Positions 3,251 to 43,916 of a DNA stretch of 64,000 bases are shown one piece after another. The stretch spans positions 4,476-68,475 of IMG/VR virus record IMGVR_UViG_3300032053_000058, one strand, 5' to 3'. The position numbers were made by a program, and so were the translations under genes. Below the pieces are notes generated by a model that was not told where the DNA came from, did not search any database, and saw only the letters and a program-made list of their open reading frames with translations. Position 1 is the stretch's first letter. Every line of letters begins with the position of its first letter. The stretch comes from a virus.

Positions 3251-5776
3251 ATGAGTAAGGTATTCATAGACACAGAAACCTGCGGCCTTCATGGGATGCC
3301 GGTACTTTTGCAATGGGCCGAAGATGATGGTCCCATCCATCTCCATGAAATCTGGCGGCGACCGATCCATGAAACACTGACTTTGATTGAATGGATATGC
3401 CAACATACGGTCGTCGGTTTTAATCTGGCCTTTGATTGGTTTCATCTTGCCAAGACCTACACCATCTTTTGTCTTTGTGATCCAGATTGGATTCCCGAAG
3501 AGCATATCAATGAGATCGCCATGCTGGAGCCGCAGGGGCAGGACGGCCCCTGCGTCAAGCCAGTGGCCGCTCTGGACCTGATGCTTCACTCCCGCAAAGG
3601 CCCCTATCAGGCTCTCATGGCCCGCGAAGACATCCGCATCAAGCGGGTGCCCACGGCTCTCGCCTATGCGCTGGCTGACGAATTGGAACGACGTGTTCAA
3701 TTCGACAGCATCTACTTTGCCAAGTCGGCGGACCCAGAAGCCCCGCGATGGCAAGTCTTTGATCGCAAAACTCGTTGGGGCGAAATTGACTCTGACTTTA
3801 AGGACGTTGTTTTGCGTTTCAATCCGGCGGGCGGCCTCAAGTTTTTAGCCGAACATGCGATGGGTTACAAACCTAAGTTTCATTTTAAGGACGTAGAGCC
3901 ACCCACGACTTGGCGACCGTATGAGTTAGGTTACGCACCCACGGCTTCGGCTGTTTCAAGCCAGGCGAAAAATTGGGAAGTTTGGGGTCGCAAGAAGGGC
4001 AAGAAGGTTGCGATTGCAAAGGAAGAGGAAACACCCATCGCATTGGCAGACGCCTTGGCGGATGATAATGACGAGGATGAAATTGTCAAACGGCCCAAGA
4101 GTGAAGACCAATTGCTGGGGCGGGCCTGGCCAGGCGTTATCAAGAAACACATCGAACATTGGGCGGCCCGCGCTGACGCCCGCGAGTACGCGAATGATGA
4201 CATCGTTTATACGCGAGCCTTGGACAAGCATTTTGGATGCCCGGAGCCAGGTGACGATGATTCGATGCTGGCATGTATGGTGGCTGTGGTCCGCTGGCAC
4301 GGTTTCACGATCAACAAAGAGGGCATCCAAGAGTTGTTGTACAAGGCACAACAGGTGATTGCCACCAGTCCGGTCAACATCAACAAACCGACTGAGGTTC
4401 GTGCCTACGTGACGGCGGCGATGAACCAGATGGAATCTATTGTCCTTGAGGCATCCACGAAGAAAAGCAATCTGGAAGCCGTTGCTGACTGGGAGATTGC
4501 TGCAAAAGAAGACTGTGGTTGTCAGAATCCTGACCCGCAAGGATTCTTGACACAGAATCCAGATTGTGTACGCTGCAATGGCACCGGTTACATGCAGCCT
4601 GGCAAACATCCGGCTGCTTTGCGGGCGAAAACAATTCTGAATATCAAGATTGCAAACAAGGAAGTTGAGTTGTACACTAAGTTGTTACTGGCTGGAAAGT
4701 TTCACGCCAGTTTCGTAGTGATTGGCGCTCTTTCGTCGCGCATGGCCGGAGCGGATGGACTTAATCCCCAGGGAATCAAACACACCAAGGAAGTTCGCCG
4801 CATGTTTCCGCTCTTCTGGGCTGGCATGATCCTAAGTTTAGGTGACTTTACATCATTTGAAGTGACATTAGCGGATGCTGTCTATAGCGATCCTGGTTTA
4901 CGCGCCAAACTTGTTAGTGGCAAGAAACTCCACGCATTGTTCGGGATGGCCCTTTCAGGACTGACCTACGAGGAAGTCTTAGCCTCAGCAGGCACCGATG
5001 ATGACTGGTACGATAAGGGCAAGCGTGGCGTGTTTGCCTTGATCTATGGCGGTGACTGGAATACCCTTGTCCAGAAGTTAGGTGTACAGGCTGAACGTGC
5101 GAAAGCCGCCTACGATAAGTTTTGTTCAGACTTTCCTGGCGTCTTCAAGGCACGACAAAAGACCTTCAATTCATTTTGTTCCATGCGGCAACCAGCCGGT
5201 ATCGGGTCAGCAGTTGTGTGGGCGGACCCCGCCGACTACGCCATCACATTTCTAGGTTTCAAGCGGTACTTCACACTTGAAAATAGAATCTCGAAGGCCC
5301 TCTTTGATCTGGCTCGTAACCTGCCGAAGCACTGGAAAGCCTGCAAGGTTAAAGTATTGCGTCGTGACCGCGTACAGACGGCGGGTGGCGCAGTGTCGTC
5401 AGCGTTGTATGGTGCTGCCTTCCAGATGCAAGCTGCAAATATGCGAGCCGCTGCGAATCACGAGATTCAGTCGCCCGGCGCTCAAATCACGAAACGGGTG
5501 CAAAGAAAAATCTGGGATTTGCAACCAGTAGGAGTCCATGATTGGCTGGTAGCTTTAATGAATGTTCACGATGAAATTCTTTGTGTCAATCATCCAACCA
5601 TGCCGGACACAATTGCAGACGTTGTTCGTATGGCTGTTGAAAGTTTCCGTTCACAAGTTCCTCTTATTGGGATGGAATGGTACAAATGTGGGACTTCATG
5701 GGCAAGTAAGAGTGGTGCCGGTGCTGAGGGGGTAGTGATTATTTCCTATGAGAAGGATAAAATCCATGCCACCTAA
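3251..5776 (+). CDS. polA: Family A DNA polymerase with 3'-5' exonuclease
   Basis: ExoI IDTET, ExoII GFNLAFD, ExoIII YANDD; motif A GDFTSFEV, motif B KxxxFxxIYG, motif C NVHDE. Confidence 0.93.
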   Translation: MSKVFIDTETCGLHGMPVLLQWAEDDGPIHLHEIWRRPIHETLTLIEWICQHTVVGFNLAFDWFHLAKTYTIFCLCDPDWIPEEHINEIAMLEPQGQDGPCVKPVAALDLMLHSRKGPYQALMAREDIRIKRVPTALAYALADELERRVQFDSIYFAKSADPEAPRWQVFDRKTRWGEIDSDFKDVVLRFNPAGGLKFLAEHAMGYKPKFHFKDVEPPTTWRPYELGYAPTASAVSSQAKNWEVWGRKKGKKVAIAKEEETPIALADALADDNDEDEIVKRPKSEDQLLGRAWPGVIKKHIEHWAARADAREYANDDIVYTRALDKHFGCPEPGDDDSMLACMVAVVRWHGFTINKEGIQELLYKAQQVIATSPVNINKPTEVRAYVTAAMNQMESIVLEASTKKSNLEAVADWEIAAKEDCGCQNPDPQGFLTQNPDCVRCNGTGYMQPGKHPAALRAKTILNIKIANKEVELYTKLLLAGKFHASFVVIGALSSRMAGADGLNPQGIKHTKEVRRMFPLFWAGMILSLGDFTSFEVTLADAVYSDPGLRAKLVSGKKLHALFGMALSGLTYEEVLASAGTDDDWYDKGKRGVFALIYGGDWNTLVQKLGVQAERAKAAYDKFCSDFPGVFKARQKTFNSFCSMRQPAGIGSAVVWADPADYAITFLGFKRYFTLENRISKALFDLARNLPKHWKACKVKVLRRDRVQTAGGAVSSALYGAAFQMQAANMRAAANHEIQSPGAQITKRVQRKIWDLQPVGVHDWLVALMNVHDEILCVNHPTMPDTIADVVRMAVESFRSQVPLIGMEWYKCGTSWASKSGAGAEGVVIISYEKDKIHAT

Positions 5777-38459: not shown

Positions 38460-39017
38460 ATGAACGAACGCATTGAACTTGACGCAACGTTGGTTGCCCG
38501 TTACGTGGCGGGGGACGAGAGTGCTTTTGTCGCTCTCTATGAGCACTATACTCCTTTGCTGCGAACCTGGGCCACGTCCTGGTTGGGTGGATGCCATCGA
38601 GACGATATTGATGACATTGTGCAACATGTGTTTATTGACTTCCACGAAGGTCGGGATGCAGTCTACAGTGTGCGGGGGCATCTCCGCAACGCATTGCGTC
38701 GGCATCTTATCGACTATAAACGCTACATACTGCGCCAACGACGGAATCCAACCCGCGAGACGCATGGTTACGAAGTCACTGACAATGTTGACCCGGCGAC
38801 TCAAGTCGAACAGGATGAAGCAAACAAACTCCTACGGAGTTTGGTCGCCAGGTTGCCTGAACGCGAGCGTAATTGCATCGAGCAGGTGCATCTGGCAGGT
38901 CGCAGTTGCCATGATTATGCGAAGGAACTTAACACCCACGTCAACAATGTGAAGCGATGGACCAACGAAGGTCTGGAACGACTCCGTGAATACTATCATT
39001 GTCAACCTCAAGACTGA
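38460..39017 (+). CDS. ECF-type sigma-70 factor
   Basis: D..LV.RY..GDE.AF..LY..Y...L, DD.VQ.VF, V.RLPERER......L.G.S....A..L......VK.....GL.RLR. Confidence 0.88.
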   Translation: MNERIELDATLVARYVAGDESAFVALYEHYTPLLRTWATSWLGGCHRDDIDDIVQHVFIDFHEGRDAVYSVRGHLRNALRRHLIDYKRYILRQRRNPTRETHGYEVTDNVDPATQVEQDEANKLLRSLVARLPERERNCIEQVHLAGRSCHDYAKELNTHVNNVKRWTNEGLERLREYYHCQPQD

Positions 39018-39023
39018 ATCACG

Positions 39024-39620
39024 TTGCCATACGCCGATCCAATTAAAAGACGCGAAGCAGTCCGAGCCTGTAAACAACGTCATCGAAAACGTTATTTATT
39101 GGCTCGACGAAAAGCATACGCGCTCAAACATCCGCCCACTGACTATACTCACACACGAAACGACGAAACACCATGCGAACGCCGAAAGCGGCTTAAAATC
39201 CAGCAACAACGAGGACAAAACTACCGCCAAAGTGACCACTACCGAAAACTAAAGGCGCAATCCTCACGCACGCAACGCTTAGCTAACAAAGGAACATTCA
39301 AGGCAAGGCGCAATCATTATTGGCACAAGTTTGGTTTGACACTCAAAGAATTAGACCAACTGTGGCGAAAACAACATAAACAGTGTGCTATTTGCAAGCG
39401 TGAGATTCATCTGCGGCACACGCGCATAACAAGGGGAAAAGTCGATGCCGCGCACCTTGACCACAACCACAAAACCAAAAGAATTCGTGCCTTACTATGT
39501 CCGGCATGTAATCGGGGACTTGGCAACTTTGTAGACAGTGTTAGGCGACTTAAAAATGCTATCAACTACCTCAAACAACACCGTCGTCGTCAACAAAAGG
39601 CTCGAAAAATACGACGTTGA
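39024..39620 (+). CDS. Endonuclease VII-like (HNH) homing nuclease with basic N-terminus
   Basis: FGLT..E...L...Q...CAIC, HLDHNH.T..IR.LLC..CN.GLG.F.DS...L..AI.YL. Confidence 0.88.
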   Translation: MPYADPIKRREAVRACKQRHRKRYLLARRKAYALKHPPTDYTHTRNDETPCERRKRLKIQQQRGQNYRQSDHYRKLKAQSSRTQRLANKGTFKARRNHYWHKFGLTLKELDQLWRKQHKQCAICKREIHLRHTRITRGKVDAAHLDHNHKTKRIRALLCPACNRGLGNFVDSVRRLKNAINYLKQHRRRQQKARKIRR

Positions 39621-39837
39621 TATTTCTCGTGCCGGAGAAAAATGGGGCAACCCGTTCGAGATCGGTCGTGATGGCACCCGTGAACGAGTAATCAAGATGT
39701 ACGAAGTACATATCCGCAGGTCGCCCAAGTTACTTGCGGCCCTCCCTGAGTTGGTCGGCAAACGGCTGGGTTGTTATTGCAAACCGCTGGCGTGCCACGG
39801 AGACGTGTTGATTCAACTGTTGAAGGAACTAGCATGA
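39556..39837 (+). CDS. DUF4326 family protein
   Basis: VVN.R...YDV.I.R...KWGNPF.IG.DG.R..VI..Y, L.GK.LGCYCKPL.CHGDVL. Confidence 0.88.
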   Translation: MLSTTSNNTVVVNKRLEKYDVDISRAGEKWGNPFEIGRDGTRERVIKMYEVHIRRSPKLLAALPELVGKRLGCYCKPLACHGDVLIQLLKELA

Positions 39838-41715: not shown

Positions 41716-42165
41716 ATGTTCTGGTGCTATCTTCGCTATTTACTTCGACACAAATGGTACGTGTTCATTGAGTGCTGCAAACTCGGTATCCCGTGGCGAG
41801 GGATTATTCACGACCTGAGCAAATTCCTCCCGAGTGAGTGGCGGCCATACATGCTGACTTATTATGGACCGTGGAAGTATGAACAACGCCCGGATTGGTT
41901 GGTTGCCATCTACAAGATGGCGTGGCTCAAACATCAACATCGGAATCCGCACCACTGGCAGTATTTCGTCTTGATTAACGATACTGACAAACACCACGAC
42001 GGCCCATTGCCGATGCCAGACAAATACCGTCGTGAGATGTTGGCTGATTGGCGTGGGGCCGGTAAGACACTAGGCAAACCAAATACAAAAGCCTGGTACA
42101 AGCAACACGCTGAAAACATCGAATTGCACCCGGAAACCCGAATCTGGCTTGAGGCCAACTTATGA
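41716..42165 (+). CDS. HD-like domain protein (DUF5662-like)
   Basis: HKW.V, G..HDLSKF, AW..H..RN.HHWQY, MP..Y..EM.ADW.GAG. Confidence 0.78.
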   Translation: MFWCYLRYLLRHKWYVFIECCKLGIPWRGIIHDLSKFLPSEWRPYMLTYYGPWKYEQRPDWLVAIYKMAWLKHQHRNPHHWQYFVLINDTDKHHDGPLPMPDKYRREMLADWRGAGKTLGKPNTKAWYKQHAENIELHPETRIWLEANL

Positions 42166-42314
42166 GTCGCACTGTCAAGGGAAAGAAGGGTCCAGAGTAC
42201 GAATACTGGTCGCGCCGACCCTCGAAGATGAAGTTCCCGCCACCCGGCAAAGAAACGAAAACCATCACTCACCGCCAAGAGCGGCGCATTGCCAAACGAG
42301 ACCTAAATGCCTGA
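42162..42314 (+). CDS. Small basic phage protein (50 aa, below ORF-track cutoff)
   Basis: MSRTVKGKKGPEYEYWSRRP...; ATGA-coupled upstream, overlaps the next start. Confidence 0.6.
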   Translation: MSRTVKGKKGPEYEYWSRRPSKMKFPPPGKETKTITHRQERRIAKRDLNA

Positions 42315-42525
42315 CATCTATCGACAACTTGCCGCCGATGCTTTTGAGAAACCGACTGCGGATGTAACATCCGCTGAACGCGAGTTTGGTAAAGCCCTTG
42401 CATACCGCCGTCTATACGGAGCAACCCAAGAAAACATGGTACAACGTCTTGGCATATCCACTGCGGATGCTGCCCGTTGCACCGAAGCCTTTACAAAGAG
42501 ATTTCCGAATCTATGCAAATCCTAA
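42307..42525 (+). CDS. Stand-alone DNA polymerase A fingers (motif B/O-helix) mini-protein
   Basis: DIYRQLAADAFEKP..DVTSAER..GK...Y...YG.....V..LGIS..DA......F...FP.L parallels E. coli Pol I DIHRATAAEVFGLP..VTSEQRRSAKAINFGLIYG...LNIP..EA......YF..YPGV. Confidence 0.8.
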   Translation: MPDIYRQLAADAFEKPTADVTSAEREFGKALAYRRLYGATQENMVQRLGISTADAARCTEAFTKRFPNLCKS

Positions 42526-42896
42526 CCTACCCCCATCCGTTTCTTTCCCGCGTCTGTCACCACAGTTTCACCGTCAGTTTGGACGACATCAATCAAATGT
42601 TTTTCCTAATCCGGGAACGGAACGCTCTCGGATTGGCGGCTCCACAAGTCGGCATTGACGCACGATTCTTTGTGACGGCTTGGGGCGATGTTTTCGTCGA
42701 TCCAAGAATCGTGAATGGTGCTCACCCTGTCAGAATCATGGAGCAGTGTTTGAGTCTGCCGGGTGAAACCTACGAAGTAAGACGCTTAGGTAAGATCAAG
42801 TTGGCGACCGGACAAATCTTTAAGGGCATCCATGCCATCGTCATCCAGCATGAAATCAATCATCTGAATGGCATCCTGATTTCTGACCCACAATGA
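42513..42896 (+). CDS. def: Peptide deformylase (short phage type)
   Basis: YP.P.L, GLAAPQVG, EQCLSLPG, QHEINHLNGIL. Confidence 0.92.
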   Translation: MQILTYPHPFLSRVCHHSFTVSLDDINQMFFLIRERNALGLAAPQVGIDARFFVTAWGDVFVDPRIVNGAHPVRIMEQCLSLPGETYEVRRLGKIKLATGQIFKGIHAIVIQHEINHLNGILISDPQ

Positions 42897-43459
42897 AACG
42901 CATCCCCTTGACTCAAAATCAGTTTGCACTCGTTGACGATGATCTTTTCAAGATGTTGTCACAGTATTCATGGTACGCCTTAAAGCGGGAACAAACCTAC
43001 TATGCCGTACATGCTTACGGAACAAATCAAACGCGCCGCAGTGTAATTTATATGCACCAAATGGTTTATCAGTTACGCGGTAAACCCGTGTCAATTACCA
43101 TCGACCACTGGGATGGAAATGGATTGAATAATCAAACCTCTAATTTGCGCCCCGCAACACGCCGCCAGCAGCAATTCAATAAACGCAAACGACGGCGACC
43201 AGCAAGCAGTCGTTACATTGGCGTCAATTGGGACAAACAAACAGAACAGTGGCTTGTGCGCGTTTCAATCCAGGAACGAGCACGGAATCTTGGACGATAC
43301 GATGACGAATTTAGTGCAGCATGGGTGCGAGATTACTACGCTCGAAAATACTATGGCGTCTTCGTGCGAACTAATAACCTCATAGATCGCCGCAATCAAT
43401 CTCAATCCACGTCTGATGAACGACGAGGAACTTGGAAAGAAAGAATATTTCATGCCTAG
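42893..43459 (+). CDS. HNH endonuclease with AP2 domain
   Basis: MKRIPLTQ..FALVDD, YMHQ, IDH.DGNGLNNQ..NLR.AT, SSRY.GV.W.K, LG.Y.DE..AA. Confidence 0.9.
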   Translation: MKRIPLTQNQFALVDDDLFKMLSQYSWYALKREQTYYAVHAYGTNQTRRSVIYMHQMVYQLRGKPVSITIDHWDGNGLNNQTSNLRPATRRQQQFNKRKRRRPASSRYIGVNWDKQTEQWLVRVSIQERARNLGRYDDEFSAAWVRDYYARKYYGVFVRTNNLIDRRNQSQSTSDERRGTWKERIFHA

Positions 43460-43916
43460 CGTACTACAATCATGGACTGAACAACTTGGTTTACGCCACC
43501 AGGGCGTGTTGATGGCCTGCGTGCGCGGGTGCGATTGCGTGCCCAAGGAAGACGCCACAAAGGCTCTGGCTCGTTGCTTGCGCGGCGCGATCCTCCGTTC
43601 CTTCGATCCTAAACCCACGTCATTCATTGAAACCGTGGATGACGTAACGTTGCGCGAACGGATGGTGGCCGTTCTCAAGAATCACGACCACTATCCGATT
43701 CACTATATCATGCACTTGATGCACGGAAGCGAGATCATCGGGTACAAGTGTCCGGCACCGGAGGCCGTCTTCTGGCGCTGGTTCTATGAGAAGCTGGCGC
43801 AGTGCTTTCACCTGAACGTCGAAACCGAAGAGCAACTGGATGCCCGGCTGGGCGCTTGCGAAGCAAGATTCGCCGCCCATGCTGCCGCAACCTATGAGAC
43901 TCATAATGAAACATGA
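43452..43916 (+). CDS. Hypothetical phage protein
   Basis: SVLQ.W...L..R.Q.VL...VRG.D...D.YP.HY..HLMH..EI.GYK. Confidence 0.65.
   Translation: MPSVLQSWTEQLGLRHQGVLMACVRGCDCVPKEDATKALARCLRGAILRSFDPKPTSFIETVDDVTLRERMVAVLKNHDHYPIHYIMHLMHGSEIIGYKCPAPEAVFWRWFYEKLAQCFHLNVETEEQLDARLGACEARFAAHAAATYETHNET

Follow-up and report, generated by a model that had tools for sequence, protein, structure and literature searches.

The locus studied here raises the question of why a virus should encode, as a separate small protein, a piece of a family A DNA polymerase (Pol A) that has no catalytic center. It lies in a 64,000-nucleotide stretch of DNA (the window) that comprises bases 4476–68475 of a single virus record of 68,475 bp (IMG/VR IMGVR_UViG_3300032053_000058). 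The record has a G+C content of 53%, carries nearly all of its coding sequence on one strand and was estimated by CheckV to be 64% complete. A reading made from the letters alone, without database searches (the sequence-only reading), had singled out a complete 72-amino acid open reading frame (ORF) overlapping the start of a peptide deformylase gene (def), and took it for a retained mini-protein consisting only of the Pol A fingers. This ORF is called the fragment in what follows.

The fragment gene and its immediate surroundings

The features needed to describe the locus are listed below, by position in the window.

3251..5776, + strand: divergent family A main polymerase (PF00476, phrog_17), with its own motif B region and an HDE motif C
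42162..42314, + strand: upstream basic protein of 50 amino acids (phrog_7399); its stop overlaps the start of the fragment
42307..42525, + strand: free-standing Pol A fingers-tip gene, ATG to TAA, 72 amino acids; PF00476 at 48.1 bits; fold match to Klenow and Bst
42307..42420, + strand: conserved core of the fragment, residues 1–38 (helix N, loop, O helix), with D3, R25, K29, Y/F33, Y37 and G38
42513..42896, + strand: short peptide deformylase (def), 127 amino acids (PF01327, E 1.5e-21)
42893-43459, + strand: HNH endonuclease, 188 amino acids, with a weak AP2-like part (phrog_99, E 2.7e-25); it starts at the def stop

The ATG of the fragment lies 8 nt inside the 3′ end of the upstream ORF and its stop lies 13 nt inside def, the ATG of which is at 42513. 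The ORF was found as had been described; the protein sequence given at that time was also correct, except that its last three residues (CKS) had been omitted. A six-frame search of the full 68,475-bp record with PF00476 matched this ORF and two stretches within the 866-amino acid frame of the main polymerase, and no other match was present near the fragment in any frame, in agreement with the earlier statement that flanking polymerase remnants are lacking. Note, however, that because the record is incomplete a Pol A piece could still lie beyond the contig.

The four sequencing runs that were examined contained low-depth pieces identical to the window across the fragment ORF, with no variants. 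In all, 16 sequencing runs are listed as carrying the ORF, and RNA is on record for none of the 16. A nucleotide search of the phage collection with 6 kb around the ORF gave zero matches.

The fragment corresponds to the fingers tip of Pol I

The assignment to Pol A motif B was borne out by a significant profile match. The Pfam family DNA_pol_A (PF00476) was matched with E 1.1e-12, the score of 48.1 bits being above the curated cut-off of 34.3, and fragment residues 3–69 were aligned with profile positions 185–251 of 381. In addition, the fragment matched Klenow in a phmmer search of the PDB (E 8.7e-5) and two PHROG polymerase families (E 1.7e-6 and 6.8e-6), and the NCBIfam Pol I equivalogs aligned with the same stretch at 34–38 bits, to be read against cut-offs of 600–720 that apply to whole proteins.

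An AF2 model of the fragment, built from a five-sequence alignment (pLDDT 77.2), contained helices at residues 4–13, 22–37, 41–48, 52–65 and 67–70. It was superposed on Klenow residues 730–801 with Z 10.8 and an rmsd of 1.6 Å over 72 residues, and on Bst Pol I with a TM score of 0.89 and an rmsd of 1.2 Å. We take the fragment helices to be N, O, O1 and O2 in the Pol I nomenclature; in Pol I these four move as one body upon nucleotide binding. In this register R25, K29, Y33, Y37 and G38 are equivalent to R754, K758, F762, Y766 and G767, so that the alignment to Klenow agrees with the earlier claim that the Arg, the Lys and the Tyr-Gly pair are kept and that a Tyr occupies position 762. In a wide fold search, helix-turn-helix-type DNA-binding domains came up no higher than Z ~5, which is below the meaningful level for helical models. 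In the ESM Atlas, PF00476 was present in 27 of the 30 nearest clusters, with representatives of 67–82 amino acids, a lead at cluster level only.

Motif B as found in active enzymes, R-x3-K-x3-[FY]-x3-YG, is therefore intact in the fragment. The palm with the carboxylates of motif A and motif C is missing, the fragment covering only 67 of the 381 profile positions, and in the absence of a palm it cannot polymerize.

Homologues and purifying selection

A near-length search of 5.8 billion proteins identified three stand-alone homologues of 71–73 amino acids with 78–88% identity to the fragment. The 90% cluster of the window protein has six members of 72–73 amino acids, and the exact protein is present on 13 contigs. 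Two more forms, of 68 and 75 amino acids, came from an exhaustive profile search among 1.84 billion representatives. Metagenome contigs with DNA were available for a partial copy with 86% identity (L001) and for the 68-amino acid form, with 55–59% identity (L002). In total, the fragment clade comprises ten full-length variants of 68–75 amino acids and one partial copy, all of them open frames. Two further stand-alone proteins with the same limits as the fragment, P0103 (81 amino acids, on a 44-kb contig) and P0060 (79 amino acids, on a 947-bp contig), were both singletons.

No additional homologues came from a near-length profile search. IMG/VR scans gave no close relative of the fragment and no relatives of P0103 and P0060; a scan with def gave one distant locus, which was without the fragment. 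In 27 loci bearing DUF5662 there was no fragment match below E 3.4, and a word-index search for longer relatives returned zero, which is weak evidence. The single match in a scan of genome contigs, in a MAG, was antisense to a 332-amino acid ORF and was rejected as chance. At the end of contig L002 (2555-2917) a tandem array of a 10-residue unit (~30 bp) was observed, which is open in several frames on both strands.

Selection was assessed on one pair of 42 codons, the window and L001, and on a second pair, the window and L002, that is saturated at synonymous sites. The window and L001 differ at 14.5 of 30.0 synonymous sites and 7.5 of 96.0 non-synonymous sites (pN 0.078, pS 0.483, dN/dS 0.11, Fisher p 1e-5), and pN reached or exceeded pS in 0 of 5000 bootstraps. 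Five comparisons of neighboring genes with finite dS gave dN/dS values of 0.08–0.25, similar to that of the fragment. For L002, pN was 0.17 over residues 1–38 and 0.32 over residues 39–72.

The C-terminal half is the more variable part. The L002 variant has an 8-amino acid deletion after the YG pair and an altered C terminus. The 75-amino acid variant P0005, from a 20.7-kb contig, keeps residues 1–26 and the last eight, and beyond YG it is similar to a +1-frame translation of the window DNA, which could be the result of two compensating frameshifts or of assembly errors. With the C-terminal half altered in two of the ten variants, firm constraint is limited to residues 1–38. Variably decaying copies with neutral dN/dS, the picture proposed beforehand for mere debris, were not seen. 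On these comparisons of sequence, the fragment is not a decaying remnant, and the view of it as a retained mini-protein with the limits of a structural unit was strengthened by the same-length homologues and the purifying selection.

Conserved and altered positions of the fragment

The ten fragment variants were aligned with the corresponding part of 85 full-length Pol A proteins, which were the search matches of at least 400 amino acids after exclusion of two very long multi-hit proteins and two without a long enough match. The informative positions are given below.

D3, R25, K29, Y37, G38: 96–100% conserved in the 85 Pol A; kept in 10/10 variants
Position 33: F 75% and Y 16% in Pol A; F in six variants, Y in four
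Position 34: G, S or A 97% in Pol A; R in seven variants, then G, C and Q
Position 35: I, L or V 88% in Pol A; R in four variants, H in four, then Q and C
Position 42: F or Y most common in Pol A; E in seven variants
Position 63: F 59% in Pol A; T in seven variants
Position 72: W, F or Y 93% in Pol A; S in nine variants

Even the two variants that diverge most, L002/P0004 and P0005, have retained the core residues. We infer from this pattern that the face of the fragment that formerly packed against the enzyme is now exposed to solvent and that the nucleotide-contacting face is still selected, which would argue for binding rather than for catalysis or for docking back into a polymerase. The invariant nucleotide face of the O helix fits a putative binding role; it does not by itself name the ligand.

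Gene neighborhood and origin

The fragment is situated in an accessory region that also has DUF7020 and DUF5662 genes. Further members of this region, on the 5′ side of the fragment, are as follows.

38460-39017, + strand: ECF-type sigma factor
39024-39620, + strand: endonuclease VII
39538-39837, + strand: DUF4326 ORF, which overlaps endonuclease VII

The 50-amino acid basic protein is encoded immediately 5′ of the fragment in all three loci for which DNA was available (the window, L001 and L002), and in L002 the order of small protein, fragment and def is the same as in the window. A phrog_7399 homologue is also present in a related high-GC phage record (G004; L065 1486-1641, − strand), in this case without the fragment or def. 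The basic protein has a conserved EYWSRRP motif. The phage deformylase, at 127 amino acids, matches its Pfam family up to position 148 of 156 and keeps the motifs GLAAPQVG, CLSLPG and QHEINH.

The HNH gene was considered as a carrier of the fragment and dropped, because L002 has the fragment and def and is without HNH; the fragment thus occurs independently of the HNH gene, which has the look of a free-standing gene of the homing endonuclease type, gained or lost recently. L002 is also without DUF5662 and the ORF at 43416-43916.

The fragment was only 29% identical to the phage's own main polymerase, over 45 amino acids. Among 86 full-length matches aligned over at least 60 residues, the best identity to the fragment was 43% and the median was 35%, and with values of this order no donor can be named. 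By these identities the fragment is foreign to the polymerase of its own phage. In 18 IMG/VR records the polymerase was 57–83% identical to that of the window, and the whole records were searched with the fragment profile. Matches were present in 13 of the 18, all inside polymerase frames of 814–989 amino acids, and the other five had no match, so that a separate fragment was found in none (0/18). The fragment-free records include two that are rated 96% and 100% complete, and def was absent from the five most complete (0/5). The fragment seems to have been captured within this one clade, in an accessory region of variable content.

The main polymerase

The main polymerase is encoded ~36.5 kb from the fragment. 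The sequence-only reading had stated that its O helix lacks the Arg, and alignment placed a Tyr opposite R754. Two of the 18 related loci stop short of this position; in the other 16 the polymerase has the same Tyr (16/16). A residue in contact with the triphosphate thus seems to have changed throughout the subfamily. In the window this O-helix region lies at ~5010-5060, where the Tyr stands within Y-x-[KQ]-G-K. The main polymerase also has a Cys-rich insert before the palm (~4511-4590, + strand), with the pattern C-x-C ... C-x-x-C-x-G-x-G; at this place the consensus of the relatives has a longer C-x-x-C-x-G run that is like a DnaJ-type zinc finger.

Complementary pieces, with the segment missing from the partner as in a split gene, were not found: the main polymerase is complete, in a record that is 64% complete. 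When the main polymerase and the fragment were co-folded (alignments of 13 and five rows, respectively), the score was 0.00 in both runs, which is no evidence either way.

A counterpart in Pectobacterium phages

A fold search of predicted viral structures was inspected for small phage proteins among the polymerases, and a second fragment of this kind was found in Pectobacterium phage CX5.

MN270887.1 34080-34262: 60-amino acid Pol A fragment of phage CX5 (PF00476, 41.1 bits, profile positions 183–221)

The CX5 fragment corresponds to helices N and O only. It has a 17-residue N-terminal extension and an intact R-x3-K-x3-F-x3-YG, and it ends six residues after YG. Its residues 19–55 are ~60% identical to enterobacterial-type Pol I; compared with the 803-amino acid polymerase frame of CX5 itself, the best E value was 1.2, which is not significant. 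A copy in phage CX5-1 is 100% identical, and a copy in phage PPWS2, which belongs to a different genus, is 91.7% identical (LC375533.1 ORF5). The PPWS2 ORF5 is annotated as 'DNA polymerase' and lies 2 kb into the genome from the left; its first base is also the final base of ORF4. In both PPWS2 and CX5 the fragment belongs to the left-end early region, among small ORFs. The left-end early region of phage genomes is the usual site of host-takeover genes. The CX5 and PPWS2 fragments show four synonymous and five non-synonymous differences, a distribution that is not significant, and they are too alike for a test of selection.

The window fragment and the CX5 fragment are 42% identical over 36 amino acids, a level at which common descent is not established. 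Taken together, the fragments of the window, CX5/PPWS2, P0060 and P0103 show 28–42% mutual identity, which is no higher than their identity to full-length enzymes.

What the fragment might do

The reading that we favor, tentatively and with somewhat less than even confidence, is that the fragment is a small binding module that works through its O-helix face, the first choice of ligand being a nucleotide, a phosphate-bearing ligand or nucleic acid. Its source would be a canonical Pol I-type polymerase gene of foreign origin, from which only the four helices of the fingers tip (N, O, O1 and O2) were captured and domesticated. Sediment phages of a narrow clade would now make these as a small protein in its own right, from a row of tightly packed genes that runs from the 50-amino acid basic protein through the fragment to the deformylase. 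The binding side would be the nucleotide-facing O helix with R25, K29, Y/F33 and Y37, together with D3, and the likeliest ligand would be a (d)NTP, a pyrophosphate-like group or nucleic acid, which may be sequestered or sensed with no catalysis taking place. An isolated O helix is without the other triphosphate-contacting residues of the whole enzyme, so its affinity may be low. It also counts against a binding module that the fragment family is small and narrow and that none of the 18 related records has it as a separate gene.

The binding module is ranked first and a decoy of the Pol I surface second, with a leader for def and a part of the phage's own polymerase considered less likely than either. 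In the decoy interpretation, the fragment would be a protein mimic of the fingers tip of a host-type Pol I that titrates a host factor or a defense sensor or effector, the ligand being a protein instead of a nucleotide. We hold this to be unlikely. It would account for the fact that both fragments are nearer to canonical Pol I than to the polymerase of their own phage, with up to 43% identity to full-length Pol A against 29% for the window and ~60% against no significant match for CX5, and it suits the early-region position of the PPWS2/CX5 ORF. Pol A-like defense components do exist, one being the RTasPolA of DRT in PADLOC, for which the match was weak (E 0.0037). However, the conservation of R, K, Y/F and Y is equally compatible with binding of a small ligand, and a literature search on decoys yielded nothing relevant in the portions of the sources covered, where no defense system is shown to sense the fingers-tip surface. 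Less likely still, and in our view improbable, is that the product has no function of its own and that a remnant is kept open to deliver ribosomes to def, or simply travels with it. The ORF does overlap both neighbors, its invariant C-terminal residues coincide with the start region of def, a deletion and what seem to be two frameshifts have been tolerated in its C-terminal half (2/10 variants), and its distribution is narrow. An open frame of any sequence would suffice for such a role, yet the 42 N-terminal codons, far from def, have accumulated ~six times less non-synonymous than synonymous change per site. Moreover, in L002 there is no overlap, the fragment having its end at 584 and the listed def ORF its start at 628, and the core is still conserved.

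Besides candidate roles as a dNTP/PPi-binding module, as a decoy and as an inhibitor of host Pol I partners, the sequence-only reading had raised the possibility of an accessory acting in trans on the Arg-less phage polymerase, for instance as a donor of the O-helix Arg. The Tyr at the R754 position of the main polymerase is what speaks for this idea, but that Tyr is common to all of the 16 related polymerases, and none of the 18 related records has the separate fragment. In addition, the main polymerase already has a complete motif B region, polar or bulky residues of the fragment stand where the enzyme has small or hydrophobic ones, and CX5 carries a fragment even though its polymerase has the Arg. 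We regard a role as an in-trans part of the phage's own polymerase as barely credible.

A more general proposal, distinctly unlikely in our estimation, would be that phages have repeatedly excised the helix N–helix O hairpin of host-type Pol I, in two or more independent events (one in the sediment phages, another in CX5/PPWS2), and that the product serves to soak up nucleotides or as a decoy of the Pol I surface, countering defenses that deplete dNTPs, signal through nucleotides or watch polymerases. Nucleotide-sequestering anti-defense proteins of phages, such as Tad and Acb2, are already known. If repeated excision were true, the active-site helix of a polymerase would have given rise to a new class of counter-defense or host-takeover proteins. 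If the fragment is a nucleotide binder or a Pol I mimic, it would point to a new route from enzyme parts to small phage effectors and would provide a natural minimal nucleotide-binding helix hairpin. Gene fragments in phages are usually dismissed as debris; here a fragment of 72 residues is under purifying selection and has kept the residues of a catalytic face, and its counterpart in culturable Pectobacterium phages makes the question accessible to experiment. A caution for annotation also follows, since IMG labels a 73-amino acid homologue 'DNA polymerase I-like protein with 3'-5' exonuclease and polymerase domains' and GenBank labels PPWS2 ORF5 'DNA polymerase'.

Comparison with known systems

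The fragment resembles the fingers tip of E. coli Pol I (Klenow 730–801) in profile and predicted fold over all of its 72 residues. It differs in being encoded on its own, from start to stop codon, without palm, thumb or exonuclease, and in having polar residues at several columns that are small or hydrophobic and conserved in the enzyme. Mullen, Shenbagamurthi and Mildvan (J Biol Chem 1989) reportedly found that a synthetic 50-residue peptide of Pol I, residues 728–777, bound dNTPs and DNA; this peptide would lie inside the span of the fragment, but it was a laboratory peptide and not a natural gene.

The ORF of CX5, CX5-1 and PPWS2 is likewise a free-standing fragment with intact motif B that is foreign to the polymerase of its own phage and has a small ORF directly upstream, and it shares with the window fragment an Arg at the G763 position. 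The window fragment has the same combination of a separate small fingers-tip ORF, an intact motif B and unlikeness to its own polymerase. The CX5/PPWS2 ORF differs in that it lies in an early-gene region, does not adjoin def and consists of helices N and O only. No free-standing fingers-tip protein is described in the portions of the literature that the search covered, which included PMC10201439 and PMC11348598.

Family A polymerase sequence divided over more than one ORF is known from S-SBP1-like T7-like phages, in which exonuclease and polymerase are reported to be split (PMC10201439). In Staphylococcus phage qdsa001 (L071 1532-5878) the polymerase gene is likewise annotated as separate 'hypothetical protein' ORFs. 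The first polymerase ORF of qdsa001 extends just 3 nt past the motif B YG, near the place where a CX5-type fragment ends, and is followed by a 214-amino acid ORF and then by a 218-amino acid ORF that was taken for the putative C-terminal part of the polymerase. We suspect that the break is the insertion site of a mobile element; if so, the end of motif B would be a place at which polymerase genes break, and this would offer a possible route to such fragments. In split polymerases, however, neighboring pieces together make one enzyme, whereas the window fragment is an extra, unrelated copy.
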